Both the position numbers and the translations under genes were made by a program. Positions 3,101-63,042 of a stretch of 64,000 bases of DNA are shown in pieces; position 1 is the stretch's first letter; each line of letters opens with the position of its first letter. Source of the stretch: Psammoneis japonica. Lineage: Eukaryota. The stretch spans positions 186,001 through 250,000 of the forward strand of contig QPGO01000119.1 of NCBI GenBank assembly GCA_008632985.1. Reading direction: 5' to 3'. The notes beneath the pieces were generated by a model. That model saw only the letters and a program-made list of their open reading frames with translations. It made no database searches and was not told the origin of the DNA.

Positions 3101-4340
3101 TGCACAACAAATGACAAACCCGATGCAAAGCACATCCACGTTTCCTCTCCAGCGCCAGTGACAATTGCCCCTCCAAGATGAAGAAACAATGACAATCCGG
3201 TGATGCGATGACATTCCAAGTGAAAAGCTCTCCCCTGGAGGATTTGGGAATGTCTCAGAAATCTCAGGTTGTTGGTGAATTTGGTGGTCCCAGGGCTGCT
3301 GCCCGGCAAGGGGTGGAGAGACAAGAAACAGAACAATTGAAGTGCTGCTGCCTCCTCCAAGTGGCAGCACAAAATCAAAAGAAGAAGAGCCCCCTCCAAT
3401 CGTTGCTGCAGAATCCAAAGTTTTTGAGTTGGTCTTGGACAGCGTCCAGTCTGCCAAGCACCTCAGTTGAGGCAAAAACCTCAATTGAGGCAGTTTTTTG
3501 CCCCCCCCCCCCCCTGCTAAATCGCTGAAACCTTCACAGCCCCCAAGTGACATTGGCGCATTGTTCTCCATGCTTTAAAACCTCTTGGGGCAATGACTCG
3601 GCTCTTTGTTCACCATCAACCACACTTTTCTTCTTCACCTTGTTGGCATGCAAATGCGCGCATGCCAAAAATGCACAAATTTTGGGACTTTGATGATGAT
3701 GCAACCACCATTTTACAAACTCTGGGACTCTCTCAACAACCCACCTTCAAACAAAATCGTGAAACACAGCAAGGACGACCTTGTCATGGTGGCCCAAGTC
3801 TCGAAATCAAAGCGACAGTCAAGAAAAGGAGGGTTCAAGCAAAAAACACAAAAAAATGGCACCTCAAAAATCCGGGTCTGCAACGATGGCAAATCTGGGC
3901 TGCATGCGCCGCAGGCTGTCTTCTCTGTGACAACGGAAGCTCGCTGTTGTGTGCTGAGCTTTCAGGGAGCATTTTTTGCGACCGCAGCATCAGAGTTGTT
4001 GATGTCACAACAAACAACTGAGACCACCAATCCTTGTGTTGACCCATGTCACCAAAACACAACAATTGACAATGACAAGCACATGATGCACCAATGTGCA
4101 TTAAATGTGAGACGATGTGGTGGTTGAAAGCACGTCAAAGGGCTTTTCATGAATGTGATGGGCCATTTTCGCATCCCACGTTTGTGGCTAATTTGTGGAT
4201 CTCAAGATTGAAATTTGACACAGACAAGCACATTGCGCATGTAAAGCAAGGTGTCATGAGCAATGAAGTGGCTTCATTGTCATTGCAGACTGCTTTGCAC
4301 ACCGCAATGGGATTGACATCGTGGTCTCTCGTGTTGTTTG
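200..4340. repeat. TpA-depleted, TpG/CpA-rich degenerate block (repeat/TE-derived, family not assignable)
   Basis: Very few TA dinucleotides; many survivors are in ctag/ttaa/ttag contexts. Many overlapping Cys/His-rich, Tyr-free ORFs. Confidence 0.65.
240..950 (-). pseudogene. Degraded ankyrin-repeat-like coding remnant inside a TpA-depleted block
   Basis: The minus-strand translation has LPLHTAIVHDCSTDIILFL, SPLHVHL and LHPLDVAC-like motifs resembling ankyrin repeats. The frame is broken and Tyr-free. Confidence 0.3.
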
Positions 4341-13971: not shown

Positions 13972-14430
13972 GAGGAAGGAGCGATGTTTGGGTGTGCAGA
14001 CATTTGGCTTCCAGCAGCAATGTGCCAGCAGGAGGCACTGGCTGTGGCTGTGTGGCTGGCCCCAGTTTGTCAACAGCATTTCTTTGGTTCTGTGAGACTG
14101 TGGTGCTCATTTTTCTCTTTGCCAAGCCTGGTTGGATGAACAAAGCTGGCCCAGAACCCCACTCAAGACAGTCAAATTTCAACATTTCCCTTCTTCATTC
14201 GAGACACCACAGTGAGGAAGAGATGTTTGGGTGTGCAGACATTGTTTGGCTCCCAGCAGCAATGCCAACAGGAGGCACTGGCTACAGCTGTGTGGCTGGC
14301 CCCAGTTTGTCAATGGCATTTCTTTGGTTTTGTGAGACTGTGGTGCTCCTTTTCCTCTTTGCCAAGCCTGGTCAGATGAACAAAGCTGCTGGCCCTGAAC
14401 CCCACTCAAGACAGTCAAATTTTAACATTT
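13972..14430 (+). repeat. Tandem duplication of a ~240-bp unit (~13972-14187 and ~14214-14430)
   Basis: Shared gatgtttgggtgtgcagacatt...ccccactcaagacagtcaaatt. Differences include TA/CA/TG swaps. Confidence 0.9.
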
Positions 14431-17026: not shown

Positions 17027-17090
17027 CCCCCTCCCTCCCTCCCTCCCTCCCTCCCNNNNNNNNNNNCCTCCTCCTCCTCCTCTTCCTCCT
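17027..17090. repeat. (CCCT)n/(CCT)n microsatellite flanking a short N gap
   Basis: Seen directly. Confidence 0.9.
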
Positions 17091-41438: not shown

Positions 41439-41693
41439 GGTGCTTGTCGCGTTTTTGTTGTTTTTTTGCGAGAATGCGTTCTCTCAGTGACTGGCAGCTG
41501 GTGTGTAGAATGTGGTACGAATTCTACGTGGACTGCCTGCGAGTGAAGTGGAAGAGAGCGTTGGAATGATTCCCACGATTGAATGTTGCTCGGAGTAAGA
41601 CCACGCGCGCGCGGGCGTCGCGTAGTAAAATCGAGCATCTATCTGTGCGTGCACACGCAAAAAAAGTTTTGCAACCCGAATTTGCTCGGCGCA

Positions 41694-43755
41694 TGTCATA
41701 AACCACTTGGCTGTTGTTTTGTGGGTCACCAAACTGTTAATGAATGCACACACACACACACAAAATGCACATGACAATGCATGTTGCATTCACCTCCCCA
41801 ATTGCACATCACAACATCATTCGTCAAAAACGGCACACAACACAATGAATGCTGACAGCCGTCAATGACATCACTGTGTTTGATCTTTGCTGTGCCATTG
41901 GCATGTGTCATTGTCATCACAGCATGCAGCCCTGCATGCGGCTGTTCTAATTTTTGGAAGTGTTTCTCGAGTGGTGTCTTCTCACCTGCTCTGTGGTGCA
42001 TGCATGGAGTGCACAGATCGAGCGTTTTCTTTGGCATTGTCTCCATTTGTGATTTGCTGTTTTTGCTTTTGGACAAACTTCTAATCAGCAACGTGTTGGA
42101 CATTAAAAATCATGTCTCTCTGTTGAAGACTGATTGTCCTGGTGCAGCTTGCACAGTGGCATGATGTGCACAGAAAGCACAGCAAAGGCTGCTGTGGATG
42201 GCACACCACAGAGTGAACAGATCACCAGCATCCAACGGTGAGAATGTTGTGGGTCAAATGCATGCAGCACATTGCCCAGCACTTGATGTGCACATTCTAC
42301 AGTTGTGCTCGACTGTGGATTTTGTGTGGTTGCAGGCTTGACTTTACAGCTCCACAGCCCTCTTCAACCATGTCTTTAAATCAGTGTCTGATGAGCTCAC
42401 TTCCACAGTCACGTGCAATTGACAATGGCCAAGGATGTCTGCTCTCAACCATGTTTGTTCCAACAGTCCAGCTGCAGTTGTGGATTCCTTGTTTGGAATT
42501 TCCACAACTTCAAACCATCTGGTTGCTGGATCAATCATTGTCAAACATTTCAGGGCTGGGGGTTCTTTGTTCTTTCCCTTGCAATGCACTTTGCATGGTC
42601 CAATGAGATCCACACACAGTCATTCCCATGGCACTGTTTCTGCACACTTGGGGGGGGGGGCAAATGTCCAAATGTCTTCTGTTTCTTTTTGAATTTTTGG
42701 CACATCTCACATTTTGACACACGCATTTTTGCATGTCATCATGCAGGGCAGACCACCACAAGTGTTTTGTGAGATGGTGTTTCTTCTGTTCTGTTTGTGC
42801 CAGGGTGAAAAAGGTGAGTGTGACACCAATCTGTTGTCACTGCCTTTTGCAATGTCTTTGGAGTGATGATTTTGTCCTTGTGACATGTGAGCAACCAGCC
42901 TCACTCACCTCCATGAAGAATCTTTGTGTGGTGTGTTGCGCCCGGCAATTTGGAGAGAATGTCTTTGTCCTGCTTTTGTTCAGTGTCAAGAACTTTGCAC
43001 GTCAACAGAAAGACATTGTCGCTGGATTTTGGTGGCAACATTTCAGCTGGTTCTTCATTGCTGAGGTTTTCCACAGGTTCCACTTTTTTCATGGTGAGTC
43101 TGCTGATTGCATTTGCAACAATGTTGGCCTTGCCCTTGAGGTAAATTGGTTTGGGACTGCACTCTTCCATTGTCAGATGCCAGTGCATGACTCTGTCCAT
43201 TGTGAAGTTTGTGTGTGTGAGATTTTTATGATCCATGTGCACATTCATCTGTTGGCCAAACAGCACGTTCCGGAACTCTTTTAACATCTCCACTGTGAAC
43301 AGCAGTTCTTTTTCTTCCATTTTAGCACAACGCATCTGTGCTCCATTCAGCTTGCGGCTGTGGAAAGCAACAGGCCAACTGTTCTGCATGACAACCACTC
43401 CCAATTGAGAATTGCTCGCATCAGCACACATCTCAAAGGGTTTGTCAAAATTTGGGTGTGACAGTGACATGTCTTTGGAGATGATGCGCTTCACATTTTT
43501 GAAGGCTTTTTCTTCCGTTTTGGTCCAATCCCACTTTGCCTGTGTTGAGGTGAGTCTGGCCAAAGGAGCAACAACGTGAGATTGTTGAGGCCACATGACT
43601 CGACAGCAGTTGATCATGCCGACAAAGCGTTGCAATTCTTTGTGAGTTTTCGGAGTTGTGATCTTGTTCTTTTGGATGAGTTTGATGCTCTGCTGAAGTG
43701 CAAGCCTCACCGTAATCCTGCCAATGTCATTGCCCAGTGCCTGAAGAAATGACAC
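41694..43755 (-). mobile_element. Degenerate Ty3/gypsy LTR retrotransposon remnant (RT C-terminus, RNase H, integrase, PPT and LTR start)
   Basis: FVGMINCCR, FDKPFEMCADAS..QLG, VAFHSRKL, EKELL, VHMDHKNL, KGKANIVANAISRL; integrase DLIGP..LTMIDPATRWFE; purine tract at 41789-41799 followed by TG on the minus strand. Confidence 0.9.
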
Positions 43756-43759
43756 GGGG

Positions 43760-44471
43760 ATCTGTTGCAGTCCGTCCTTTGCTCTGTGACTGCATCAGAC
43801 ATGCTGGGCTCTCCGAAGCTGGCTGGCTAGAAGCATGTTTGCAAGAAGATTGCGCAGCTGCAATGGTGGACAAGGACAATGTCCTTGTGACTTCATCATT
43901 GGATGGTGGAAAGGAAGGGTCTGGAAAAGGGCAAGCTGCTCGAGTCAGTTGAACAGCAATTCACGGTATCGTGCACATTCCGCATCATTGACATGCTCTT
44001 GAGACTTTGCGAAGAACACTGCATGCTGATCCATTGCCACAACAGACACCAGTTTTTGCCAAAAACTCTTGAAAGGTAGATGTCATTGTGGAAAAGCTAG
44101 AGAGGGCATGGGCATTGTTGCCGCCCCTCTTCACGGTGGACGAGGGAGTGAGAAGATTGCTTCAGTTACAAGAAGGCTAAGTTGGCATCGTTGTTGCTAA
44201 AGAGCTGACAGCACGAGGTCTCGACTCACCCCTTTTGACACATGTGATCAACTTTGATTCGCCAACAGATGCTTCGCACTACGCTCATCGCACTGGCCGG
44301 TGCGGGTGAGGTGGGAGACCAGGAGTTGTTGTCATCAACTTGACAACCAGTCCCCAAGAACGCAATGTACCGCAAAAGTTTGCCGATCAACTGGGTGTCA
44401 CCATGCATGCTGTTGAACCTCGAAATGGCAAACTTAACATTGTGGATCCTAGCTCACAAGACATAGACTAG
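43760..44471 (+). pseudogene. DEAD-box RNA helicase C-terminal domain pseudogene
   Basis: [24 protein letters not shown] (motif V) and [10 protein letters not shown] (motif VI, with the last Arg replaced by TGA at 44307). The frame ends at TAG 44471. The 5' part abuts the gypsy remnant. Confidence 0.85.
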
Positions 44472-46098: not shown

Positions 46099-47865
46099 GG
46101 TCGTGTGGTTGTTGTTGTTGCTGTTGTTGGAGCTCTCTTGTCGCTCTATCACTCTAGCTAGAGATCGATGTCTTAAAATTCAACACATCGCGGCAATGAA
46201 GGCAAGCAAGGCGCGGATTACGGTAGCACGTACATTTCGCGCGTACAGCACCCCGTTTCACCACGGTTCAACTTACGTGCGGTGGTATTAGCGTCGAATC
46301 ATATGACTAAAAATATTTCTTGTCAATTACAGACGATATCCCTGCTCATTACCGGCATGCACAGAAACGCGCAGCGAGGTCCTGAGCATTTTCGATGGCA
46401 CAGAACCTTGCCACGGGTTTCTGTGCCATCTACGACAAAGCTGCGTAGATTTGTACCGAAAAAAATCTGAGAACATTTTGGGATTGTTTTGAATTGCAAT
46501 GTTCACATTTAACTCACCTTGAATGTTCGAAAGAGACAATGTTCCAGCTGTTGGTTCAACAAGATGAACAGACACGATGACAGGATTTGAACAGGATTCA
46601 GGTGCGCGCGAAATGTCGCACGCTGTTTAGTTTGCCGCGCACAGTTTTGTGTGCTTTGGTTCCGCGCGTTCGCGCGCGATGCAGTTTGCTTTCGAGCCAC
46701 AAGGCTCACAAGAACAATGACAGTGGCCCGATCATGCCGACTCACACGTCTTTCGGCTCCTGCAACGGTCTCTGAGCGGAGACTCATCTGCTGTTTAGAC
46801 AGCAGCAAGGAGTTGTTGTTTGAATTCTTGCCATTTGCCTTCAATTTCTGTCAGATTGACAGTCTTGCTCATTGTCAACCCATTGAGCAACCGCCATCAT
46901 CGTCGTTGATTTACCAACGATGCCACTTCAATCCTGCGTGGACCTCCGTGTGTGTCCCACACACATCGGCAAGTCTGCGCGCATTCAATGCCAGGGCATC
47001 GGCAGGAAGTTAACGTCACCGTCAAGTCTCCTTGCCGCTGGACATCTGGATTGATTGCACCACCTTTGATCGCTGAAGACACACACTCAACGGTCACATC
47101 CAAGTCTGCCCTTGATCCTCATCCCTTGATGTGCCTGTTCATCGGTTGACGGTCAAGAACCCTGCACATTCAAGGATCTTCGTCGCTGAGGACATGCACA
47201 CACACACACATGTCTTCACGGCCAAGAACCTGCACCCACTCTTCGGACTGTGGTTTTGCCACCACTCCACAAGCACACCGAGTCCATTGCACCTGATCCA
47301 CCCCAGACTGCTGGTGCTCCACAGTTCTGCCAGGTCCACGAGGACGACTGTGAGAGCAAGCAGCCGTGATTGCAGCCTGCGTTGGGGCGAGGGTGCTTTC
47401 CCGCATTTGTTCGTTCGTCCACAGTGCCTGGCGCCTGCATCAACTGGCCAGCCTGATCGGGAAATCCAACCGACATAAAACAAGAATGGTTCGGGGGTCT
47501 TGTCCACCTCTGGTCAGCTTGCCTGCAGGGGTTTGCAACCTGCTGCTCCGCTCGCAAGCAACCCAAAGCGCCGCTGGCTGTGGGTTCGGACGTGCTGGCA
47601 CAACTCTACGGACTGGATGGGAAGTTTAGCACTTGACAACGAATGGGGTGGCACAACCCGGCGACTTCTGATTTTAAGATGGTCCAAGATTTCAAGTCAA
47701 GTCTAGCTCAAGTCACGTCTTTTTCAAGCCAAGTTCCAAGTCAAAACTCCGAGTCAAGATCGCGCTCTAGATTGGTTCCTGTCTTTTGTTTCTACTGCAC
47801 CGTCCTCCGTCATGGTTCTCACGTGACAGCAACAAACCGAAAGCTTCAAATACATTCTAGGCACT

Positions 47866-50412
47866 GTGCTCAATCAAGACGATGACAGCCCTCTTCGTTC
47901 TGCCCTGTCCACCAACGGGATTGAATCGTGCGAGGAATTGTTCACGTTCTTACCCACCCAAATTGACGCCCTCACTTACAGAGACGGTGCCAATGTAGTG
48001 CCTTTGCCACGGACCCACAGAAACCTCCTAGCAGCTTTGATCAGCTTCTACTTTGTCAAAGTTTGCAACGGTGATGATGTGACCAATGAACCCCAGTTGC
48101 TCACACCCGAGGAATTTCGCAACTGCAGCCTTGGTCCGGACTGCTTGACCTCTCTAGCCACTGGCGCAGCACCCTCCACACCTGTGCCGAGTCCCTTGCC
48201 ATCCAAACCAGATGAACCCAGTGCCATTTTGACACCAGCCTTGCACTGTGCCACCACTCAGGTGTCTCCTAGAAGTGGTGTCAGTCGCACCCCGCATGTC
48301 TTGACCAACCCACCTGCAAGCAACCTCGGCCCAGTGCAGGATTGCAGCCCTTGCACAGGCCCGCACTTCGAGACCAGTTGGGACACTCCACCCATGGCTT
48401 CCAAAGCTGCAGTCTTGGCACCCCGCAAACCACGTGCTGCCAACCTCCACGTGTTGACTTCTGTCGCTGTCACCCTTCACAGTCTTCGTTTGGGAAGTGA
48501 TGGAGGTGACAACTTGCTTCTCGTATCTCCTGATGGGGAGCCTCCTTTTCCCGTCATTGAATCTGTTCACAACAGTTCAACCGGTTCATCAGATGGGGAG
48601 TTCAGGACATCCAAGCAGCTTCGTTGTCTTCGGATCCTCCAAGCATCGCACCATGAGACCAGGCCTCCTGATTGGATGCCTCAAGTCTCGTACCTCGAGA
48701 CTGGGCCTCCTGATTGGATGCCTCAAGTCTCGCACCTCGAGACCAGGCCTCCTGATTGGATGCCTCAAGTCTCGCACCTCGAGACCAGGCCTCCTGATTG
48801 GATGCCCCAAGTCTCGCACCTCGAGACCAGGCCTCCTGATTGGATGCCCCAAGTCTCGTACCTCGAGACCAGGCCTCCTGATTGGATGCCTCAAGTCTCG
48901 TACCTCGAGACCAGGCCTCCTGATTGGATGCCCCAAGTCTCGTACCTCGAGACTAGGCCTCCTGATTGGATGCCCCAAGTCTCGTACCTCGAGACTAGGC
49001 CTCCTGATTGGATGCCCCAAGTCTCGCACCTCGAGACCAGGTCTCCTGATTGGATGCCTCAATGGATGCCTCAAGTCTCGTGCCTCGAGACCAGGCCTCC
49101 TGATTGGATGCCCCAAGTCTCGTACCTCGAGACTGGGCCTCCTGATTGGATGCCCCAAGTCTCGTACCTCGAGACTGGGCCTCCTGATTGGATGCCCCAA
49201 GTCTCGCACCTCGAGACCAGGTCTCCTGATTGGATGCCCCAAGTCTCGTACCTCGAGACTGGGCCTCCTGATTGGATGCCCCAAGTCTCGTACCTCGAGA
49301 CCAGGTCTCCTGATTGGATGCCTCAAGTCTCGTACCTCGAGACTGGGCCTCCTGATTGGATGCCCCAAGTCTCGTACCTCGAGACTAGGCCTCCTGATTG
49401 GATGCCCCAAGTCTCGCACCTCGAGACTGGGCCTCCTGATTGGATGCCCCAAGTCTCGCACCTCGAGACCAGGTCTCCTGATTGGATGCCTCAAGTCTCG
49501 TACCTCGAGACTGGGCCTCCTGATGGGATGCCCCAAGTCTCGTACCTCGAGACCAGGCCTCCTGATTGGATGTCCCCAGTCTCGCACCTCGAGACCAGGC
49601 CTCCTGATTGGATGCCTCAAGTCTCGTGCCTCGAGGCTGGGCCCCCTGATTGGATGCCCCAAGTGTCGTACATCGAGACTGGGCCCCCTGATCGGATGCC
49701 CCAAGTCTCGTGCCTTGAGACCAGGCCTCCCAACTGGACTCTCCACGTCTCGTGCCTCAAGACCGGGCCTCCCAATTGGATCCTCCACGTCTCATGCCTC
49801 AAGACTCGGCCTCTGGATTGGATCCCTCAAGTCTTGCGCCACGAGACTCGGCCTCCTGATTGGATCCCCCAAGTCTCACACCTCAAGACTTGGCCTCCTG
49901 ATTGGATCCCCGAAGACTCGTGTCACAACACTGGCAAGTCCTTTTGGATCCCAGAAGTCTTGCAGCACGGGACTGGTTGCCCCAATCAGACATCTGCAGC
50001 CTTGCACCACAAGATGTCTTGCTCCAATCCGATCCCCGAAGGCTTGCACCTTGAGACTCGTTTCTCCAATTGGATCAGTCTCTCAGGAGATGCAGTCGGA
50101 TTGGTGGAACACAAGACCACCGCTTGTGCCTTTGAACTGATGCTTGCTCTGTTCCCCGAGTCGTGCAAACGCCATGCCGCCTGCAATGTTGCCCCACCGT
50201 TCAACATTGTCAACCAGACCAAGCTTTGCTCCTTCCATTGCAAGCGCGGATGTGGAATCCCACAAGATCCCAAGTGTGCCTTGAGCTTTGAAAAGCACAA
50301 CGGCATCTGCAATTGGGGAGACGCAGCTCATCTCAAGATGACCCACTTGGAGAATGCAACGTTGCTCTCGGATCTTGATCCTTTCTTGTCTCCTCATGTT
50401 TTGGTGCTTTGA
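47866..50412 (+). CDS. Element-encoded ORF: gag-like N-terminus fused to 14-aa tandem repeats (ETRPPDWMPQVS[Y/H/C]L)
   Basis: DDDSPLRSAL..GI...EL......IDALTY...PL....L....F...LTPEEF resembles diatom copia gag N-termini. The ORF has no ATG start and is probably mutated. Confidence 0.5.
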   Translation: MLNQDDDSPLRSALSTNGIESCEELFTFLPTQIDALTYRDGANVVPLPRTHRNLLAALISFYFVKVCNGDDVTNEPQLLTPEEFRNCSLGPDCLTSLATGAAPSTPVPSPLPSKPDEPSAILTPALHCATTQVSPRSGVSRTPHVLTNPPASNLGPVQDCSPCTGPHFETSWDTPPMASKAAVLAPRKPRAANLHVLTSVAVTLHSLRLGSDGGDNLLLVSPDGEPPFPVIESVHNSSTGSSDGEFRTSKQLRCLRILQASHHETRPPDWMPQVSYLETGPPDWMPQVSHLETRPPDWMPQVSHLETRPPDWMPQVSHLETRPPDWMPQVSYLETRPPDWMPQVSYLETRPPDWMPQVSYLETRPPDWMPQVSYLETRPPDWMPQVSHLETRSPDWMPQWMPQVSCLETRPPDWMPQVSYLETGPPDWMPQVSYLETGPPDWMPQVSHLETRSPDWMPQVSYLETGPPDWMPQVSYLETRSPDWMPQVSYLETGPPDWMPQVSYLETRPPDWMPQVSHLETGPPDWMPQVSHLETRSPDWMPQVSYLETGPPDGMPQVSYLETRPPDWMSPVSHLETRPPDWMPQVSCLEAGPPDWMPQVSYIETGPPDRMPQVSCLETRPPNWTLHVSCLKTGPPNWILHVSCLKTRPLDWIPQVLRHETRPPDWIPQVSHLKTWPPDWIPEDSCHNTGKSFWIPEVLQHGTGCPNQTSAALHHKMSCSNPIPEGLHLETRFSNWISLSGDAVGLVEHKTTACAFELMLALFPESCKRHAACNVAPPFNIVNQTKLCSFHCKRGCGIPQDPKCALSFEKHNGICNWGDAAHLKMTHLENATLLSDLDPFLSPHVLVL
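48655..50076 (+). repeat. 42-bp tandem array: 25 conserved units (48655-49716, one with a 12-bp duplication) plus ~8 decaying units
   Basis: Unit GAGACYRGGCCTCCTGATTGGATGCCYCAAGTCTCGYRCCTC. Confidence 0.97.
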
Positions 50413-50759
50413 CTCCAAAGTTCTTCAGTCAATCCGAAGTCGAATCTGTTTCTGTGGCTCCTCAAGCAAACTGGGGAGTGACAGGATTTGAGCAGGATTC
50501 AGGTGCGTGCGAAATGTCGCGCGCTGTTTAGTTTGCCGCGCACAGTTTTGTGTGCTTTGGTTCCGCGCGTTCGCGCGCGATGTAGTTTGCTTTCGAGCCA
50601 CAAGGCTCACAAGAATGACAACAGCAGCCCGATTGTGCCGACTTGCACGTCTTTCGGCTCCTGCAACGGTCTCTGAGCGGAGACTCATCTGCTGTTCAGA
50701 CAGCAGCAAGGAGCCATTGTTTGAATTCTTGCCATTTGCCTTCAATTTCTGTCACACGA

Positions 50760-53700
50760 AACCCCGCCGTGTTGCTGCTTGTCGGCACCCTCGGAATGCT
50801 GCAACATTTCTTCCTGATTGTTGGCAACTGAGTTTCTTCAACTTCTGTGCAATTTCAAGCAAACAAGCATTGTGGGATGTTCCTTCGAAGATCAATGATG
50901 CAACGAGCTAATTGTCAGTGCATGATGCACTTGCGATGGCTGCCGAAACACTTCCAGCACAATGGCGAAGGTTTCGGGTTGAGAAAAAAATGTGCAATCT
51001 TCCGTTGCGGTCTTGCCATGTCACAAGTCTGCAAAAGATCTTGGCACCATTTCTACGCTGGTGCTAAAAATTTTGCTCTACAGACACAAATGTTGTGGAT
51101 GAACCGTGGTGGTTTGTTGGTGTGTTTGCCACGTGCGCACTCTAGAAAGCAACGCATTTTGTGGCGCTGTTCAACATTGATTCATTTCAGTGCTTCGTGC
51201 TCTCGTGGATGGGAGAATGAACAAAAAATGCTTGCAAAAGCACAATGACAGAATGTGCTTCGACTCCGTTTGCGTTCGTCACTCGGCAGTTTCCAAGTGT
51301 GTGTGGCCACATGACAGCCTGTCAGAGACAGCAACACTGATGTTGCATGTGTTGTGTTTCTCAGGAATCAGGAAAGAAGTGAGTGTCAATGAATGAGACA
51401 TGCAAAACACACGTTGATTTTTGTTCTTTGTTGCCCGTGTTGGCGATGCAGGTGTCGAAGAGTCTCGATCTTGTTGTCCTTTGGTGTCAGTTTGTCTTCA
51501 TCGCACTTTGAATTCATGATTTCTGAACTGAATTTAAGCAACAACAGCACAGTCCAACAATGCCATTGTCATCACATCTTGCCTCACACATTGTTTGCTT
51601 CTGTTTTCATGCCCAAATGTTGTTCGAAAGTGTTGCTGCACTTGCGCGCACACTGCACTGAGATTCCCTCGGTCGGTGCAACAGATGTTTAGCCAACAGT
51701 GCCAGGTTGTCCAGAGTGATGATGCGGCAGCTTGGACAGCTGATTCGCTGTTGAGGTGACCTCATCGGCACGCAGACAAGCAATCAATCTTCTTGATGAG
51801 GATTTGCTTCTCTGAGTGTTTGGATCCGGACCAGCATGATGCAGTCGACATGGCATGCTGCCGCACTCTGCATGCTTTGTCAGAGCAGCTCTGGTTTCTT
51901 GCACACCATGGCAAGAGGCAAGAGAGAGCAGTGAGTCAGCCGTTTGTTGCCATGGTGGGTGCCAATCAACTTGCTTGCCCACTCATGTGCACCAATGGCT
52001 GCTGCTGCTGCCACCCAGATTGCACAGGCAGGCAGCACAAGAGAGCAGGTGCCATCCAACACCACCAATGACAAGCCCAGAAGTCCTTGCTGGCACAACA
52101 TCAACATCTTTTTGTTGAGCTTTTTTGTGCTTCTATTTGAAGGCTTGGTTCCTCCAAACACTGGTGTGCTGGCATCTCTTGCTTGCACACAGTGTGCTTT
52201 CACCTTTTTTCTCCAGCAGCCTGCAAACAACAAGTGATTGAGAAAAGTTAAAGAAACACAACTGCTGTGGTGTGACACACACATTGCTCAGCAAAGATGT
52301 GGGCAGGTTGAAGCACCAAACCAATGTTGCTGTGCTGCTGCTTTGAAGCATTCTTTGAACACCCAGCTGAGCATGCACAAAAGTGAAGCCAGCCCAGCTG
52401 TTCAGCAAAGAAGCAAGAAAAGTGACAGACAAAGTGCTTTTGCATGCCCCCCCCCGTGAAGAGCTCCTGTTGCTGTTGGAGCTTCACCACTTGCCAGCTG
52501 GTGTGCATTTGGTCTCACCATGATCTCTGAGCCTGCTGCGTGGCTTGCAAAAACACGTTGCCATTGTTGTCAATCACTGTTGCCATGTTGGCCAGGTGCA
52601 GAAGCTAAAAAGTGAACACAACAAGACCTGCAACTCAAACCAAGTTGCAAACACAAACTTGCCACATTGTCCAAAATTGTCGCCAGTGTGCATCACACTG
52701 TGACTTTGTCTGTCTGTCCTGCAAAAACTGACTCTGACCTTGATGCTCCAACACACTTCTTCACACAAGCCATGTCAACTGGTCAACCTCATGCCCATCA
52801 AGCATGGGTGGATGACACTTGGAAACCATGCAACCCAACAACATGTTGGCTGTTCTGCCAATTCCAATGGCCCACATCATCCAACTCTGCTGACAGTGAA
52901 CGATCATTGTCAGGGCAACCCTCCTTCTCACATGCCCAACAAACTTGTTGCATTGCCAGCACTCAATCTGCTTCATCTCACTCCATGCAAAACTTGTGCC
53001 ACCCGGTTTCTTGTTGGTCCTGCAGCAGGTGTGTCCAACACCCATGGTGCCTTTTCAGCTGGATTGGGGTGAGTGTCAACCCCCAATGTGAGCCGCTGAT
53101 GCAGGTCTTTCAAGACTTGCCAGTGTGTTCCTTGGCACCTTCCACTGGCATCGCCACCAATGGCTTGTTCCTTTTTTTGTTCCAGGCGTCATTGACATCC
53201 TTGCTGGGTCCATCTTCTTTTTTGGTGATTTCTTCCGTCCGGGATGATCCTGCCACAGGACGTGTGTTTCCACTCCTGTTTCAACTGAGCTTGCAAACCA
53301 ATTGTGCCAACAATCTTAAAAAAAGTGCTTCCACCTCATCTTGATGAATGAGCGCCAGCTGCTTCCAAGCCTTGACTGCCTTTTCGTTTGCATCTGACAA
53401 GATCGACTTGCCACATTGCCCGCCACAATCGTCGCTCAGTGTGTCTTTGTCTGTGTCTGTCCTGTGAAAACTGCCTCTAACCCCAATGTTCCAACAGGTG
53501 CATGCTGGACCAAGTGGGTCGAGAAGCACACGGCGGATGAAAAAATGAAATGCTGGTCATGTTGCAAGAACAAATCATGTGGGTGACCCTCAAATTGTTC
53601 CACGAAAATGAGTCACGGAGATGATCATAGACAAATTCAGTCGAATGAATCAACCCACGACCAATGTTGATTCGGGCAATGCGTGAGGTCATTCAATGCT
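50760..53700. repeat. TpA-depleted degenerate block
   Basis: TA is rare throughout; CG is also rare at ~51900-53100. Confidence 0.6.
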
Positions 53701-53834
53701 TGCCTCGTGAGCCCTCCTTCATCTTTTCCTTGTCACACGGCACCCGCACATGATCGTAAAATTGTGCCCAGTGACAAGACACTGTTCACAGACATTCTAA
53801 CATCTTAGAATGTCCTGCTGCAAACGATTTTTAA

Positions 53835-55070
53835 TTGAGCCCCGGGTGGTGTGGTTTTCACCACGACGTCCATCCCATTTTTTCTCGTCATGTTTGGTTT
53901 GAGAACAAGTCCAAAAGATCCAAAATGAGGACCATGCGTTGCTTTGTCTCTTGGACGCCAGTGTTGAGTGCCCCATTTGCAAGGGGTGAGTTCTTGTGTG
54001 GCACATCAAAGGCGCCTGGAGAGACAAACGGACATGGAGGTCTTGAACGCGACGAGGTCAACGCACCAAATGGTGCGACATGCACAATTTACGGAGGGAT
54101 CAAGGGATCGTCTCCAGCCACGATTTATGACAAAGTCCAAGTGAGTGGGGGAGCGACACTCATCATCACTGGACAAGTCACCTTTGAAGGAGAGATCACT
54201 TTAAAACGTAGGAGCAGTTTGGTTGTTTCATCTGAAGAAAATGTTTGTCCAATGTTCAAGACGGGCATCAAGGCAAAAAGAACGAGCCAGGTTTCCATTT
54301 CAGCAGAGGGATGCTGCGTTCATGTGGGCAGAAACCTTGAAGTCTGCGAAAGTTCCGGATCCAGTTCCAGTGTCGAGATCCAAGGAGTCCCAGCAGACAC
54401 TGTCACAGTTGACAAGAATTCTGTTCACACTCTCAAGACAGTCAACAACATGTTGAAGAGAGGAAAGTCATTGATCGCATCAAAGAACACTGTGACGGGC
54501 TCCAAGAAAGCTTTCATCAGCATGAACTCCAACACCAAGAGGATTGCCATCAAAGGAAACAAGTTCCACGCCATTGACATTGTTGGCAACGTCGCAACTG
54601 ACTCAATCGTGTTCAGTGGGAATGCGCACAACTCAACGTTAGTTTTTCAAGACAATGATTCAGGCAAGAAAATGAAACTCAAGAACAACGATGGCGCAAA
54701 AGGAAGATCTCTTGACTGTCAAGGGAACGTCGTTGGTGGGAAGTTCATGGTGAAGAGACGGTGCAAAGCTCCAAACCCTCAGAAGCAAGTCGCAGCTTCT
54801 AATTCTTCCCCATCAAGAAGCCCGCTGACGAAGGAATTAGAAACCGAAGGCACAGACCAGAACGGTGAGACAGGCGGTGGTGCCACGGCACGTGCTCTCA
54901 CCCAGAATCCCACGCCTTCGCCAACACCACCGCCAACGACACCCTCAACTCAGGAGCCGACGCCCGAGCCAACCACAAGAGAAACGGCTGAACCAACTCC
55001 ATTCCCGATGCGAGCTGCGACAAACAAGTCGGAGGGAGGTCTTGAGGCACAGACCACCACAAAAAAGTCA
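53835..55070 (+). pseudogene. 5' part of a host gene (beta-helix-like Asn/Gly-rich repeats and PT-rich linker; probably extracellular) interrupted by the LINE
   Basis: The ORF runs ...NPTPSPTPPPTTPSTQEPTPEPT...TTTKKS up to the TSD and continues in frame at 63135. True start uncertain. Confidence 0.7.
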
Positions 55071-55184
55071 AAACAAAACCAAAATTCCATGTTTGCAGTG
55101 CTGCCACGCTTCCACCCTGCAACTCCGGCAACAAGCCAACCCACACCCCCAGCGCACTAAAAGTGCGGCAGGAGCAAACAGTGG

Positions 55185-58100
55185 TTAGCCGAGATCGGCG
55201 TCACCCGAGGGTGACGCCAAGCCAAAATAACTTGCGATGGTTCTGGTGCCTCGTGCAGCCAAACATTTGGCTTCACGCATGCTTGATTTAAAGACTGGTT
55301 TGAACATGGCCAACCAGTTTCGAATCCGGTGAGTGGAGTGTGACAGGTGTTCTTCTGCCGAATCAAGGAGGAGCGCCTTGTCTCTTGCAAGACAATTGTC
55401 TGTACGAGAACAAATGGCCTTGACCTCTGCTTCTGCGTCTCGTCTTTGAGACGACTTCCTCGTTTCCGAATCGTGTCCGTGCACAGCGTCGTTGTGAGCG
55501 TCCCAGAGGTCCCACCACTGCTCCCCACATGAAATTCCCAATGGTTGCAGCCCAATCCAGCCATTTCTGTTGATCTGAGAGAGTCCGACAAATGCCGCTC
55601 GACGAAAGGTGAGAGGTTTGCGTCGCATTCCACTGGACAGAAAAACGGCCATTAAACAACTGACGCCAACCTGTTTCCCCTTGGGAATGAAATGCGGGCA
55701 CGACGCTGTGATGAAATTGTTCTGAGTGCAAAAGCTCGCCTCGAAACCATGCTTCAACAGCCGAAATTATCAAGTCTCGTAAGGAAGGAGACATGTGAAC
55801 ATCATCGCACTTCTTGCGCAATCCTTGCAAAAATTTTCTGTGCCAGGCTTCATTGTGAGGGCAACGGAGAATGTGATCTCTGTCTTCCATGGGGTCCTGA
55901 CAGTGAACAACAACAGTCCGGACGTGTCGGATTGCATCTGTGCACAATCTTGTTGGTGGGCAGAAGATCTTGAACCAGCTTGACGGCACTGACTTTTCGA
56001 CGAATGTTTCGTGACATCAATTTCGAATGAACGTCCCAATCAATCGATGCGCACACTTCGTCGGACCAACTGTGTTTCTCTTTCATGTGCTGAACCAGTG
56101 CAGGACTCGATGCCTGACATCTGACAACCGGCTTGCATTTGGAAGAAACAGTGGCTCCTTGAAGAAGCAGGTTTGCTCGGCAATGAGGCATGCGGGGAGC
56201 AGCAAGAGCATTGCCCGTAAATCGACCTTGGAATTGTCCAGCGAGTCTGTCGGCACGTGTGTTCAACTTCGCCGCTTGAGAGAGAGAGTCAATGGGAAGG
56301 ATGTCATCTTGGTGTCCCTTCACCCAGTGAATCTCGACTGTGGGACACGACAGTTCATCAGTGCGTGCTTCTGACAGCTGTCTCAGGGAATGGAAGACCT
56401 CATTGACAACACCCCAATCCGGAGAGAGAGCATCAGCAATGTGAAAACGCCAGTGGAAGTCTCCTTGGATCTCCTCCTCGTCGGCAGGATGAGGAATCAC
56501 CTGGAAATTCGAGACAGTGCGAATGAGAGCGGAATTGTCGCAATGCAAATCAGCGCCGCTGACCTGTGTAGAACAACAGTCTGACAATCGGATCAGAAAA
56601 CGGAGAAAAGACAGTGGACCGCATGCCTCCGCACGACAAGACGATGGGCGAAAACCGAAAACTGGACCGGCACAATCCACAAGAGGAACCCCGTCGATCG
56701 CAATCGTCCACCCGAACGTGCCTTTGAAATGGAGGACCGAACCGTCGCCAGCTGCTGAAACCTTGTGGGTGACGAGGAGCTCAGCGATTTCAAATGTAGA
56801 CCGATGTAAATGCAATTCTTCGAACAGAGCAGATTCCCACCGAGGAAGAGACCGCAGCATGGCCAAGAAATCATTCGGGACGGGAGGGACTGTCGGCAAG
56901 GACACTGGAGAACCGAATGACTTGATCCGCCACAAACCGGTTGTAGTCGTAACTGCTGGCACAGGGGAAGCGGCTGGGGAAAGATCTGGAACGTTTTCCA
57001 GAGCAGCAAGAGTCTCCGCACAACCTTGGTGCACTGGGAAAATCTCGAAACCCGAATCTCCACGAATGCACAAGTGATCCTCGGAGGATTCGTAATGTGC
57101 GACATGTGTCATGCGCATTTCCGTAGCTGGTGCAACCCATTGACCTAAAGGGTGTCGCAGATCGAGCGAGTCTGGTTTGCAAAACAAGGAACAGGCTCGA
57201 CGCCACTGTTTCCATGCCCGAGCGGATGGACGTTGTTGTTCGATGGGATTCAGAGTGCTGCGACTGCTGAGAAGGAACGATCGGCCGTTCACTTTAAAGG
57301 GATCGAGCGAAAAACCATCTGGAGAGGCAACATCCGACAGAGTCAAAACATTTGGATAAAGACGACAGTGGTTGACCCACTGCATCTCACGATCACTGAA
57401 CACCTGGGATTGAAGTGCAATGTCCATGATGCATTGGTCGTTGTCTCGCTGGAGTGGAAGCACTCCAGCACAATCACAGTCGATGGTGGCATCGATCCGG
57501 GCCAAGAATGAATGCAAGGACATGAACCATTTCGATTCGGAATGAGGGAGCTTGGCATGGACGTCCTGAAGAAAACTCACACCTGTGCCAAGCTGCAACT
57601 GAATCCACAATGCAGCGATTTGCGACAACACCTGAGGTTGCCCAGAGCCCCGCCAGTGGGTGAGAAACTGCAGAACCTGCGCTGCACCCTGTTCCACGTC
57701 TAAAGACCTGAAACCACCGCCTCCCAGGGAATGAGGTCCGAAGAGGACGTCACGTTTCGAGTTCCGATTGCACCCGCATTTGGCAAAAATGGCACGCATG
57801 GCCTTCCTCTGCACTTCGAGCAACTCTTTCTCCTTGAAGTGAGTGTTCGGGAGAACATGCGTGGTTGCAGACAGATGACAAGCAAAATGGTGAGTCCATG
57901 ACTCGTGTCGATCTAAAGGACAAGACCGAAGGAAAAGGGCAATGCCGTCACTCTTTTGTTTCAGAGCCGAGTGCTGGGTCTTTTGAGTCCCCGCTGGAGC
58001 TTTGCAGTGTCCAAGTGTCTTGTGAGAAGAGCATGCGGACAATTGTTTGCTTGACCCGGTCGTGGTGCGGTCTGCAGAAGAGATTTCAATGTCAATGTCC

Positions 58101-61076
58101 TCGTTGTGGGGTCAAAGGTGAGGTTCGCCGTCCTCTGTAAACATCCATTCGACAGCGTGGAAGGAGCATTTGGGTAATTCTAACTCGTGGCCAGCCGCGT
58201 TCAAAAGGTCGCACCACAGTTGATTGTCTTCCTGCATCTTGAAAGCCAAATCGAGGATGCAAGGTTGAGGACTCGAACAAAAATCGTTCACCTGCTTGGA
58301 CGTGTCGTCGACATGTCCTCCATTGAACATCTGCAGCGAGAGGGAGTGATCTGGGGACTCGAAAAATGCACCATGTGCCCGTTGATCGAAGATCTGGAAC
58401 AGACCATTGCAAATTTGGTTCCAGCAAAACGGAGAGTTTCCGCTGCCCTGTCCTGTTCCGTAAATGGGGAAGTCATCAGAGTGAGAACAAGAAGTTAGTG
58501 ACAGGCCCAGCACCATTCGCAACCAGCAGCGAGCCTTGTGAACAGTGGCGTCAGCGACTTGAGTGACTTCTTTGGGCATGCCATTGCTGCGGCTCTCAAT
58601 TGCAACCAGAGCGGGAATGTTCCGATCGCAGCACGATGTGCAGTCATCATCGCTGTGAACAGCGGATTTTCGGGAGGCACGGCCAATCTCGAGCATGAGT
58701 TCTTCAAGGCACACAGGAGTGTTGGCATTTAAGAAGGCACGAGTGCCGCAGATCCCCGAGTTGCACAATCGGCGGTGTTCCATGTTTTGGGCCAGAGTGC
58801 GCCACTTGACGCTCAAGATTAATTGAAAGTCAGCTTTTGCAGATGTGGGTGACACGGAGACGATGCATCTTGTTGTTGCCTGGCTCTTTAAAGATCATCA
58901 CGTTGACAACATCTTGCCAGCGGTGAAAGGAGTGTCCCCAACGAAGGGCACAGTTAAGCAGATTCAACCTGATTTGAGCAAGGGATTGTTGAACTTCATC
59001 GAGGGCCTCACATTCAGGGGCAGGATTGCCTTCGGAATCAGCTGCATCTGAGAACCGATGAGGAGCATGCATTGCTTTCCAATGACCTGGGTGGAGGCCG
59101 GAGCAAATGGACGTGGAGGTGGATTCTTTCCAACGTTATATTTTTCCTTCGAGATCTGATGCAGACAGAAGATTTGGTGCAGAGACTGGGGAACGGCGAC
59201 GCAAGTGGTTGATGAAAAGGGCAGTTGCTTCGTTCAAAGCCAACGTGTCACACTCGCCATCAAGAATGAGATCCGCCACAACAGTGTCACCTTCGTGGCC
59301 TGGGTCCATGGATGACGGAGGCACCGTTGGAGGGGTGCCTTGTGCCTGACTGAAGTGTTTTTGATTGCGTTGACGGAGAGCAGTGGCTGCCTCTTCCGGA
59401 GCGTCAACAGTGGTCCAATCTTGACATTCTTTGGGAGGAACAGAAGGATTGCCGGGAACTTGGACGCTCTGAATGCCTGTGTCCCTCTGAGTGCGGCATG
59501 AGTCAATCTTCCTGAACAGCTTTTTCATCTCTTCTGCCTTGCGGACATTGCGCAAGACAGTTGCCTGTTTGCGTGACTCCTTGGTGCCTTCCAGATCGAG
59601 TGCGGCCATCCTCTCGGAAACTTCCCTTTCGCGGTGTACGACACTGTCAGCCGCTGATCGCTTGCAATCGTCTTGAGCAGCACACAGCACCTCTTGACAA
59701 CCTTGCAAAGTGTCGGGGACAGTGAAGGATCCACTCAGTTTGTCTCGCATTGCTCGAATCTGTGATGCGCAGTCCAATTTTGTCCTCATCATGGATGCGA
59801 GGCGGGAAAAGATGTGCACCCGGTACCTCAGGTCTGAAAGTTCAACCGACCAGTCGGGTTCGCAATGAATTCGGCATTTCTTGGCAGCGGAAAGAGAGAA
59901 CTGCAGGAGATCACGGTCCAACCGTTCAGCCAGAGCATGATCTGGAGCGTCAAGTTCCAGCAGCTGGAAAGAGCGTTGCAATGCCGAACGACTCTGAATC
60001 ATTGGGCCGATTGCCTGTAGACAAGAGGTGAGCTGTGGTTTAGACGTAGCCTGAATGTCCCTGAAGGATGCCTTGGGTAAATCGACAGTCGGGTTGCCGA
60101 AAAGAGCTGCGGTGTCAAAGTCCACGAAGTGAGCACGATGATCAGAAGTGACTCGACATCCAAAGGCTTCACATCCACCGAAGCGAGCTGCAGCAAGAGC
60201 GCCAGGAGAGGCCAGTGCGCAGTCAAGACGCCGGGAACCTCTGGCACATGTGGAGAACTCAGTGTCGCCCATGATGTTAAACAGGACGTCAGACAAATTG
60301 AAGCGCTGGGCAACGGCAGCCAAAGAGTCAGTGTCACAGGTGAAATCAGTGTTAAAGTCCCCAAAAACAATGACTTCTCAATTGGAATCCGCCAGAAAAT
60401 CCTGCAAGACTCGGGACAAGTCTGCACAAAATGCCTTCCTGGGATCGAGTGACGGCGCCCCAATTGNCCGGAGGAGGGCCAATTGTTGAGCACATGCTGT
60501 TGTCTTCCCTGGGTGTTGTTGGTTCTTAGCGCAAACTCGACAGCAAGAGACAAACACAACTTGGCGTCCATTCCCACCGTCGAAGACTTGAATTGACCAC
60601 CTGCCGAGCGGGTCGGATTCTTGAGTCCGGAAGCAAGCAGAAATCGAATTACATGACAACAAGGCCATTCCACCCGGTTTGCATTGCATTGCAAAGGTGG
60701 TGGAACTGCTTGAAAAGGCAGACCGCCCATGATGTAAAGACTTGGAAACGGCAGATCTGCACATGGATGAAATGTCGAATTGGGTGGTGTCGAGGCACAC
60801 CTCCGAGATGCCAATGACATCGGCTTGAATTTCGGAGGCGAGTTGACAGCACTTGTTCACATCACCGCCACGCTTGTCGAATTTACAACCGTTGGCATTG
60901 AAGGCGTAAAGGCGCGCATGGTGAGAAAGCTTGGGCCGGAGTTCGTCGCCCACAGGTGCGTTGGTCTTCAGTCGAGAAAAATCTATCCGACGATCTGTGG
61001 GAGGGTGGCAACTGCGTCCGTCTAGGACATTCTGCCAAGCGAGAGCTGGATCTTCAGCAGAAGGCGAATGACTCAT
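55185..61076 (-). pseudogene. LINE ORF2 (AP endonuclease, reverse transcriptase, RNase H, C-terminal Cys/His motif), disrupted
   Basis: EN: FNANG, DVIGISE, KPGG, DPLGRW, SDHR. RT: FKEPGN..HRLRV.H, GTGQGSGNSP, HVDD. RNase H: GDGSV, RAEA.G, CDN, WVKGHQD, N..ADRLA. Also EDRDHILRC. Confidence 0.9.
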
Positions 61077-61125
61077 TGTTGGGCCATGCTCCTCCGAAGA
61101 GAAGACTGAGGCTTAGAGCACTGCA

Positions 61126-63042
61126 TTAACTTGGTGTTGGCTTGGAAGGAAAAACTCCGGCATCGTGAAGTCCGACGGAAAATTGATGTTGGCGCAAGTG
61201 GTGAGTGGGGCGAGGAAGCAACATCAGGAGGTCGCCTGATTTCTTGAGGGGGTGGAGGCGGTGAAGTCCAACCCCTGCCTGAAAATCCGTCTCCCGTTCT
61301 TTGTGGTCGCCAGGGCGTTCAGGAGTTTCCATGTTGTTGGGGCGTTTTCTGGCTGAACTCTGAACAGGTTGGTTTGCTTGAAGCAGTTGAACAATTTGGT
61401 TCATTTGTTCCTGCACTGCAGCCAACTGTTGGGAATGCTGAAACTGCATGGTGGCCATGTCCTGGGAGTGTTGTTTGGTGAAGGTGTTGTGCAAAGCTTC
61501 CACATCCTGAGAATGCTGTCGGCGGAGATCTGCCAGAGCCGCATCGTTCTTCTGTTGCATTTGTGACAGGGTCTGTTGCACTTCCGCCATCTGTGCTGAC
61601 GTGAGGGAAGAACTTGTAGACGACTGAGTCGCTTGAGCGCACAAATGCGGAGGGGACGAGATTCCTGGGTGTCCAGAACATCCGCAAGGAGTTGCCTGGA
61701 AGGAGGGCCTGGGGGCGAAGATTTGCGGAGTGACTGACGGGCTTGGAGAGTGGCCTCGACCAGGGGTGCTGCCACGACCATGGCCTCTGCCCGCGAACTG
61801 TGCCGGAGGAGGAGGACGGTTTGACCTCGAGGCCTGGGTGTCCGTCAATGGAGATACGTCTGAGAAGGTTGGGGACTCCAAACTGCGGATGCTCGCAGAC
61901 ACTGTGGATTTGCTGGTGTCGGACTGCTCGTCAAGCACACCAGACACGTGAGGTTGATCGGGAAACGGAGGAGACGGCCAAGATTCTTTGGGGACATTTG
62001 GAATTTGATCCATGATGCATGTGGAGATGCCAGCACGGGAAGCTTTGAAATCCGTACGTTTGACCAACACATTGTACCGACCAGGGGTGGCACTAGACTT
62101 GCAGATCTCTTTCACTCCGGAGATGGCCCTGATGTGGTTTTCCAAATAAAACATCACATCCGGGGAGGTGCACAACAGCGGAACCACGCAAGCATCATGA
62201 TTGCGACGAGCTTGGAGTTTGACAGCGTTATAGAAGGCGAGTGGCGACATGCACCGTGTCTTTGCCACAACAATGTGTGTCGGCAGCTTGTTGGAGGCGT
62301 GCAGCAAGGTTTTTCCTGCAGTGCGGCAATCGTCTTGTTGCACTTCGATGGCACAAGTGACGGTGCGAAGGGGAGGAGCCAATTGATCGTCATCGGCACG
62401 AATGGAGGTAGGTGCGAGACGAAATTTCGGCATCTTGGACTTGAATTCGCCCAGATCTTTTGCAAACAACTTGGTAGCTTCGTCGATCGGAGTGTGCTTG
62501 GATGGGGCAGCGACGCAACATGCCGGAGTCGCCGTGTCGATCACTGGCTCATTCCAGCAGTGGCGCTTCAAACCCATGTTGTTTGAGTCTAAAATGCTCT
62601 GAATATGAGGATGAGAACAGATCTCTCGAAGGGGGACTTTGGTCAAAATACGGTGGCACAGGCGGTGGACGACAGGGCGTTTTTCTCCACTGCGAGTCGC
62701 AGAAATCGTGAAGTGACGTTCGTGCTGAAGGGTTGCAATCCATTCTGCAATGTTGACATTGGTGATCTGGTTGTTGTGGTTGTCCAGGATCTGAACATCG
62801 TTGTGATACGTGAATAGGATTTGTTGCAAAACTTGAAGATGAGCGGTGGTGAGGGTCATCGGCTTGCACGTCGCCTCCGGGCCACGAACATCAAAGCGTG
62901 GGGTGATCTCCACATAGGGAGGCTCTTTCGGTTTAGAAGAAGGTTTGTTGGATGCGTGATCAACAGTGATATCGTCCGCCATATTGATATCGTTGTTATC
63001 GTTGGGGGTATGGCTACCGTCAGCGACGGAACGAGACGCCAT
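61126..63042 (-). CDS. LINE ORF1 (Pro/Ser-rich region and Gln-rich coiled coil)
   Basis: 638-aa ORF directly upstream of the endonuclease frame, starting ~77 bp inside the 5' TSD. Confidence 0.8.
   Translation of the reverse strand: MASRSVADGSHTPNDNNDINMADDITVDHASNKPSSKPKEPPYVEITPRFDVRGPEATCKPMTLTTAHLQVLQQILFTYHNDVQILDNHNNQITNVNIAEWIATLQHERHFTISATRSGEKRPVVHRLCHRILTKVPLREICSHPHIQSILDSNNMGLKRHCWNEPVIDTATPACCVAAPSKHTPIDEATKLFAKDLGEFKSKMPKFRLAPTSIRADDDQLAPPLRTVTCAIEVQQDDCRTAGKTLLHASNKLPTHIVVAKTRCMSPLAFYNAVKLQARRNHDACVVPLLCTSPDVMFYLENHIRAISGVKEICKSSATPGRYNVLVKRTDFKASRAGISTCIMDQIPNVPKESWPSPPFPDQPHVSGVLDEQSDTSKSTVSASIRSLESPTFSDVSPLTDTQASRSNRPPPPAQFAGRGHGRGSTPGRGHSPSPSVTPQIFAPRPSFQATPCGCSGHPGISSPPHLCAQATQSSTSSSLTSAQMAEVQQTLSQMQQKNDAALADLRRQHSQDVEALHNTFTKQHSQDMATMQFQHSQQLAAVQEQMNQIVQLLQANQPVQSSARKRPNNMETPERPGDHKERETDFQAGVGLHRLHPLKKSGDLLMLLPRPTHHLRQHQFSVGLHDAGVFPSKPTPS

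Follow-up and report, generated by a model that had tools for sequence, protein, structure and literature searches.

Repeat-induced point mutation (RIP), the process by which Neurospora and other ascomycetes inactivate transposons, changes C to T by cytosine chemistry, turning CpA into TpA, and so enriches TpA in the repeats on which it acts. A process of the opposite direction has been described in the chlorarachniophyte alga Bigelowiella natans, where 230 of the 231 mutations found in two integrated viral regions of mutation-accumulation lines were A-to-G or T-to-C (Mettrop et al., bioRxiv 10.64898/2026.01.13.699255). In this preprint all GC-biased mutations of the viral regions lie on TpA, their rate is elevated ~1000-fold, an ADAT2-like deaminase is proposed as the enzyme, and reverse-transcriptase and DDE domains are over-represented among genes poor in TpA (10.64898/2026.01.13.699255). 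Its text mentions neither diatoms nor long terminal repeats (LTRs). Full-text literature searches turned up no account of DNA hypermutation directed at TpA for diatoms or for pairs of LTRs, the B. natans preprint being the single description of such a process. Here we analyse a pair of LTRs in a 64,000-nucleotide stretch of the diatom Psammoneis japonica (NCBI GenBank assembly GCA_008632985.1, contig QPGO01000119.1, positions 186,001 to 250,000 of the forward strand), which we call the window and whose first letter is position 1. The LTRs bound a retrotransposon of 4.2 kb and, judging from the sequence comparisons given below, their differences are a further case, now from a retrotransposon family of a diatom, of the mutation process reported once before, in an unrelated alga.

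The two LTRs, recovered by repeat search and alignment, are direct repeats of 276 bp that are 93.5% identical without gaps, and when they are aligned with 100-bp flanks their likeness begins and ends exactly at the coordinates in Table 1. An earlier reading of this DNA (the original prediction) had noted about 18 differences between them, all transitions; a script count gave exactly 18 positions, with 18 transitions, no transversions and no indels, and every difference that had been quoted as an example was found as written. The same reading described the differences as mostly reciprocal CA/TG or TA/CA, which is also what we see. At six sites (LTR positions 138, 141, 147, 156, 166 and 237) one LTR reads CA where its partner reads TG, which makes up 12 of the 18 differences, and two more sites are CA/TA. 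The remaining pyrimidine-purine (Y-R) dinucleotides fall into the classes TA/TA (1 site), CG/TG (1), CG/CA (1), CG/CG (20), CA/CA (19) and TG/TG (22). Two differences lie outside these classes, an A/G at 46591 and a T/C at 46813 that adjoins the sixth reciprocal site. By this classification 14 of the 18 differences are at TA-derived dinucleotides and CpG decay accounts for two. The first five reciprocal sites form a cluster interleaved with CpGs that are intact in both LTRs.

The pattern was set against chance. Even with a transition share of two thirds, 18 transitions in 18 differences have P = 7e-4, and at least six adjacent pairs among 18 randomly placed differences have P ~3e-4 (200,000 draws). 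As a control, repeat pairs in TA-normal DNA of the window have transition to transversion counts of 50:52 and 23:24 and no reciprocal CA/TG site, whereas repeat pairs in its TA-poor DNA do carry reciprocal sites (5, 2 and 1). Each LTR holds both outcomes, with CA at four sites and TG at three in the left and TG at three and CA at four in the right, in agreement with the earlier claim that both strands were affected. These data show that changes occurred at TA-derived sites on both strands and near saturation while CpGs were almost untouched: ~86% of TA site-copies are converted, as against 2 of 214 non-TA, non-CpG positions that differ. The LTR pair is a late, nearly saturated case, in which CpGs are intact and TAs almost gone.

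A reciprocal CA/TG site may descend from TA or from CG, and because each ancestor needs one change per copy, the pair alone is symmetric in parsimony. Methyl-CpG decay is the textbook route to CA/TG pairs; by this route the sites would have been CG at insertion, and cytosine deamination on opposite strands would have left TG in one LTR and CA in the other. CpG decay does occur at two LTR sites, CG/TG at 46607 and CA/CG at 46620, and elsewhere in the window repeat DNA is poor in CpG, with an observed/expected ratio (o/e) that falls to 0.03-0.2. In both LTRs, however, CpG o/e is 1.1, and 20 of the 22 CpG sites, among them those of the cgcgcgttcgcgcgcg stretch, have stayed intact in both, just as CpG-dense stretches had been said to be identical in the two copies. 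Six of these intact CpGs (LTR positions 152, 161, 170, 177, 189 and 200) are interleaved with the reciprocal sites and lie within a few bases of them. We compared the two ancestors in a likelihood model with one conversion probability per class (TA, CG), in which same-direction changes form a class that cannot be observed. Deriving every one of the six reciprocal sites from TA gave a log-likelihood of -15.3 (p_TA 0.86, p_CG 0.05), and deriving every one from CG gave -35.5, so that TA ancestry is favoured by 20 log units; each site moved to CG costs 1.3-5.5 units. The ancestral TA count implied by the TA model, ~15, agrees with the count expected from base composition.

The 42-bp tandem array between the LTRs bears on the same question. 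Counted over its 25 whole units, with a 12-nt partial unit excluded, it has two trimorphic Y-R sites, the first reading TA in 14 units, CA in 8 and TG in 3, and the second CA in 13, TG in 9 and TA in 3. No unit has CG at either site, which speaks against a CG origin. Since TA is, of the three states seen, the sole one that is a single step from both others, the trimorphism of the array points to TA ancestry.

Further copies of the family were compared using contigs from four coded sequencing runs (X1-X4) of one sample, aligned to positions 46300-47200 at 80% likeness. The sample may be the source of the assembly, so the runs are not independent support, and their data are unphased contig depths. 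A total of 2995 X1 contigs align to this region, and summed word depth is 193,457-806,329 in LTR bins versus 122-4,136 in left-flank bins. The family letters at 46725, 46733 and 46743 (Table 1) exclude a CG majority and fit TA, which covers three reciprocal sites out of six; no X3 or X4 contig has G at 46725. The dinucleotide 46724/46725 is TA in at least 33% and CG in at most 22% of X1, with CG at 0% in X3 and X4, and 46724 in the other copies is better read as part of CA. A family consensus of CG at the reciprocal sites had been named in the original prediction as the finding that would overturn it; at the three sites checked, CG is the majority at none.

The same direction of change is seen beyond the reciprocal sites. 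Among the 40 listed of 105 places at which the window copy varies from the family, 28 have CA or TG in the window and TA elsewhere (17 TG, 11 CA). Five have CA or TG in the window and CG elsewhere, one of them being 46724, which is paired with 46725. The remaining listed differences are one with TA in the window and TG elsewhere, one with CG in the window and CA elsewhere, and five in other contexts. In a dinucleotide-repeat run at the inner edge of the compared region (Table 1), the window and the other copies differ by five T-to-C and one A-to-G changes, all at TpA. Separately, at 46926, 46933, 46956, 47086 and 47109 the window has C and the family T in 65-99% of depth, the T being followed by T or C. 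These five non-TpA places are all on the same strand and may be a subfamily marker or reflect a second, weaker activity of the same mutator.

Taken with the intact CpGs, the likelihoods and the trimorphism of the array, these family letters back the earlier claim that ancestral TpA was resolved to CA or TG. That the reciprocal CA/TG sites descend from TA and not from CG is thereby supported at the sequence level, and we consider the methyl-CpG route to these sites very improbable. A 2-bp inversion, by which CA would become its reverse complement TG, was set aside in favour of descent from a TA hub, which accounts in addition for the TA/CA sites, for the letters of the family and for the trimorphic array.

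The LTR pair is most probably explained by a TpA-specific A:T-to-G:C process that acted on integrated double-stranded DNA after the LTR copies had separated. Separation would have come about most simply by insertion, and TpA-specific mutation would then have acted on the integrated DNA. A change of the top-strand A would turn TA into TG and a change of the bottom-strand A would turn it into CA, so that opposite-strand hits in the two LTRs at one TA would leave a reciprocal CA/TG double difference. Under this scheme ~86% of the TA sites in each copy would have been hit, and ordinary CpG decay would have added 2 of the 18 differences. The chemistry may be adenine deamination to inosine at 5'-TpA-3', and the process is presumably targeted to repeat or silenced DNA.

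Evidence on the timing comes from an empty-site paralogue. One X2 contig matches the left flank as far as 46577, with 5 other letters in 60, and then runs on with the 30 letters that follow 50759 in the window, with a single CACGA in between. This establishes a single insertion with duplication of 5 bp and also shows the host DNA to be a repeat. The two TG steps in the right flank listed in Table 1 were likewise compared with this paralogue. The original prediction held that the changes took place after insertion. The intact target duplication and the empty-site paralogue favour that timing, while gene conversion from other copies of the family could also have brought the differences in, and this part of the claim is accordingly less firm.

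The changes might instead have been made on single-stranded cDNA during reverse transcription, by an adenine deaminase acting in an APOBEC-like way, so that the LTRs differed already at integration. Reasoning from the standard scheme, edits specific to one LTR could in principle arise once plus-strand strong-stop transfer has taken place. Such editing should be polar, leaving one outcome in the 5' LTR and the complementary one in the 3' LTR, but both outcomes are present in each LTR, at sites 3-10 bp apart and in either orientation. Moreover, TA was also lost in the flank (50774 and 50777, compared with the empty-site paralogue) and throughout the 16-kb TA-depleted domain. We regard cDNA editing as barely credible. 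From the mixed outcomes in each LTR and the TA losses in flanking DNA outside the element we infer that the process acted on integrated DNA, and on the same grounds we agree with the original prediction that it did not act during reverse transcription.

Several observations weigh against a TpA-specific process that made these differences in place. Family letters were seen at only three of the six reciprocal sites, with 46715-16, 46718-19 and 46814-15 among the places not listed, as were the letters 46734, 46744 and 46813, and the CA and TG states of the reciprocal sites are both common in the family. Exactly 10 differences from the left LTR, a count that the right LTR shares, are found in an X4 contig of 72 bp and depth 15.1; should this contig match the right LTR, its haplotype would be common to many copies and possibly inherited rather than made in place. 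Among the listed places there is one same-direction conversion, at 46658, where about six are expected. Lastly, 46591, 46813 and the five T/C differences between the window copy and the family are not at TpA.

Some of these points are what would be seen if all or part of one LTR had been replaced, either through ectopic gene conversion with another copy as donor or through polishing of the repeat with short reads during assembly, the pair then representing two family lineages that had resolved TA differently. The very abundant family (2995 contigs in X1 alone), with many different flanks at both LTR ends and with both states common among its copies, could supply a donor. Right-LTR-like states are shown in other copies by the X4 contig with its exactly 10 differences and by five X1 loose ends, and ten of the LTR differences fall in one 30-bp cluster. 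To judge by the target duplication and by the empty site, however, there was no crossover between elements. As the differences extend over 225 bp of the 276-bp LTR, any donor must have been a close sister, nearly identical and distinct only at TA- and CG-derived sites. The lack of transversions and indels among the 18 differences also speaks against overwriting, though weakly, as 10 of the 105 family variant places are transversions (P ~0.15). On balance overwriting is unlikely, and even if it took place both sequences would still come from a TA-bearing ancestor, each having resolved it independently, and only the claim about timing would change.

A TpA-specific process on integrated DNA could conceivably be a mechanistic mirror of RIP, in which repeats are sensed by homologous pairing and the paired LTRs or copies expose opposite strands to a single-strand-specific DNA adenine deaminase; we think this quite improbable. 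A pairing-dependent TA eraser would prefer reciprocal outcomes, rather than produce them at half of the doubly hit sites. The sole hint of this is the count of six reciprocal sites versus one same-direction site (46658) among the listed places, and the contig difference counts are compatible with up to two more same-direction sites. In these unphased listed places the excess of reciprocal over same-direction sites is not significant, whether taken as 6 versus 1 (P ~0.06) or as 5 versus at most 2 (P ~0.23).

The effect on apparent age is direct. The Kimura two-parameter distance between the LTRs is 0.070 over all sites (18/276), 0.016 without TA-derived sites (4/258) and 0.009 without TA-derived and CpG sites (2/214). 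LTR divergence is thus inflated 4.4- to 7.4-fold, which confirms the earlier expectation for dating by this method.

The element has terminal repeats with TG..CA ends, a target-site duplication within the 4-6 bp range of LTR retrotransposons and an empty site, and it lacks recognisable gag/pol capacity. A Pfam search of nine internal open reading frames (ORFs) returned no families, so that the element is either non-autonomous or degraded beyond recognition. Loose ends unrelated to the window start exactly at 46578 in 16 X1 contigs and at 46853 in 14, and together with the depth over the LTR this indicates that the LTR is the terminal repeat of a family that is very abundant and inserted at many sites, and that its borders are those given in Table 1. 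Loose ends of other copies (16 X1 contigs and 2 X3 contigs) also have GGGGAG before the LTR start, and contigs of other family copies also cover 46854-47200. No TGG-type primer-binding site was seen after 46853 by sequence inspection, made without a tRNA set for comparison. By blastn neither the LTR nor the interior has a further copy in the 64-kb window outside the element, and two metagenome scans for LTR patterns of 25 nt, in which the variable step was written Y/R, each returned no match. By its sequence features the element is a non-autonomous LTR retrotransposon, resembling large retrotransposon derivatives (LARD) and terminal-repeat retrotransposons in miniature (TRIM), of a very abundant family, inserted once into an older repeat. 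The TAs that survive in the LTRs, at 46628, 46796 and 50583, are all in T/G-TA-G context (TTAG, TTAG and GTAG), too few for a context rule; the one at 46796 is in the loop of a hairpin-like inverted repeat, CTGCTGT...ACAGCAG.

The long open frame of the interior is built largely of a 14-residue repeat, PPDWMPQVS-x-LET-x. The residue after VS in this repeat is Tyr, His or Cys, corresponding to the TA, CA or TG state. The frame may be a captured gene, or it may have been held open through the loss of TAA and TAG stops.

Table 1. Coordinates of the element, its flanks and the sites compared with other copies of the family (window positions; percentages are shares of contig depth in the coded runs)
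Feature	Position	Strand	Details
TA-depleted domain	46501..62500	.	TA o/e 0.00-0.37 per 500 bp; starts near left LTR edge
Left target-site duplication, 5 bp	46573..46577	.	CACGA; directly before left LTR
5' LTR, 276 bp	46578..46853	+	TG..CA ends; terminal inverted repeat TGACAG/CTGTCA
CA/CG site	46620		Window A; G 98% in X1; true CpG decay
TG in both LTRs	46658		Window G; A 96% in X1; conversion common to both LTRs
CA/TA site	46682		Window C; T 64% in X1; TA ancestral
Cluster of five reciprocal CA/TG sites	46715..46744		46715-16, 46718-19, 46724-25, 46733-34, 46743-44; partners at +3901
Reciprocal site, first letter	46724		Window T; C 45% in X1
Reciprocal site, second letter	46725		Window G; A 78% in X1, 100% in X3 and X4
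Reciprocal site	46733		Window C; T 73% in X1, 100% in X3 and X4; not CG majority
Reciprocal site	46743		Window C; T 71% in X1, 100% in X3 and X4; not CG majority
TTG in left LTR, CCA in right LTR	46813..46815		Sixth reciprocal site (46814-15) with adjacent T/C difference; CCA in three X1 contigs
Internal region	46854..50478	+	No recognisable gag or pol; TA o/e 0.20 (Pfam and composition)
CA-repeat run	47198..47213		TA-repeat run in X3 and X4 contigs of other copies; compared by eye
Open frame, 848 aa	47866..50412	+	No family match; holds 14-residue repeat
42-bp tandem array core	48667..49728	+	25 whole units; lies between LTRs
Polypurine-tract-like GGGGAG	50473..50478	+	Upstream of 3' LTR and abutting its start
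3' LTR, 276 bp	50479..50754	+
Right target-site duplication	50755..50759	.	CACGA; directly after right LTR
Two TG steps in right flank	50774..50777		G at 50774 and 50777; empty-site paralogue (X2) reads TA; compared by eye

The loss of TA extends beyond the element. TA o/e is 0.29 over the whole window, with CA at 1.47 and TG at 1.46, and within the 46.5-62.5 kb domain CA+TG o/e reaches 2.05. By comparison, a kinase gene at 40-41.5 kb has a TA o/e of ~0.5, and the DNA to the left of the element, at 44.5-46.5 kb, one of 0.3-0.75. Tyrosine makes up 0.3-0.8% of residues in ORFs of TA-poor DNA versus 1.7-3.5% in host genes. By both TA o/e and Tyr content, then, the depletion is regionally restricted to foreign or repeat DNA and host genes are spared. 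Among the ORFs of the window, one encoding an EF-hand mitochondrial carrier has its best match, at 65% identity, in Seminavis robusta, and its next matches in other diatoms.

Other parts of the window differ in their TA content as well. A second TA-depleted island at 41501-44000 (TA o/e 0.0-0.29) is also depleted in CpG (0.12-0.88); in it, at 42901-43755 on the minus strand, lies a reverse-transcriptase RNase H fragment whose Tyr content is 0.4%. The left flank of the element, 46300-46577, is multi-copy in the runs, with bin depth up to ~4100 versus ~40-60 for single contigs, and it keeps a normal TA content of 10 TAs in 278 bp, the last before the LTR being at 46510; at 46432 TA is kept in the window and 87% of other copies have TG. 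The two copies of a tandem duplication (13980-14214 and 14219-14460) share 86% identity; they differ by 19 transitions and 3 transversions and are reciprocal for CA/TG at 5 sites. TA and CpG are both almost absent from the duplication, so that these sites may stem from either dinucleotide. Assembly gaps in the window are an 11-base N run at 17056-17066 and a single N at 60467.

If the process proposed here is real, diatoms, a major group in marine primary production, mutate the TA steps of integrated mobile DNA about a hundred times faster than background. Its signature would match one measured so far only in an unrelated alga, suggesting either an old and widespread DNA-editing defence or convergence. 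Such a process would remove TAA and TAG stops and tyrosine codons, leaving long false open frames, and would turn TA microsatellites into CA microsatellites. With LTR ages inflated to the extent seen in this pair, both transposon dating and gene prediction in such genomes would need a TpA mask. The pair is useful in this respect, as its intact CpGs and near-saturated TAs separate the process cleanly from methyl-CpG decay.

The changes in the P. japonica LTRs share several properties with RIP, being transition-only and dinucleotide-specific, falling in repeated or foreign DNA on both strands, and able to saturate their targets. Unlike under RIP, TA is erased here and CA/TG enriched, probably by adenine rather than cytosine chemistry. 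The repeats show no TpA enrichment; the other copies keep TA where the window copy has CA or TG. Methyl-CpG decay in transposons likewise yields TG or CA from a self-complementary Y-R dinucleotide on either strand, and the reciprocal pairs it leaves look identical to these. It differs from the present case in that the LTR CpGs are essentially intact, only 2 of the 18 differences being explained in this way.

The nearest likeness is to the giant-virus and virophage inserts of B. natans. There, too, changes are almost exclusively A-to-G or T-to-C at TpA, giving TpG or CpA according to strand. They occur solely in particular stretches of foreign DNA that has been integrated, and in the long term TpA is depleted and CpA+TpG enriched. 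The restriction to TpA, with TpG or CpA as outcome, is found here with the exception of two CpG changes, two other differences and five T/C differences in other contexts. The direction A:T to G:C is indicated by 46658, 46682, 46725, 46733 and 46743 (family letters covering three of the six reciprocal sites), by the array and by TA o/e. The B. natans process was measured directly in lines, whereas that of the diatom is deduced from sequence comparison. The hosts belong to different supergroups, a chlorarachniophyte and a diatom, and the targets are single-copy viral inserts in the one and an abundant LTR retrotransposon family together with old repeats in the other. The depletion is also deeper in P. 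japonica, where TA o/e is 0.00-0.37 over 16 kb and ~86% of the LTR TAs are gone, compared with a Rho of 0.45 in the viral region of B. natans.

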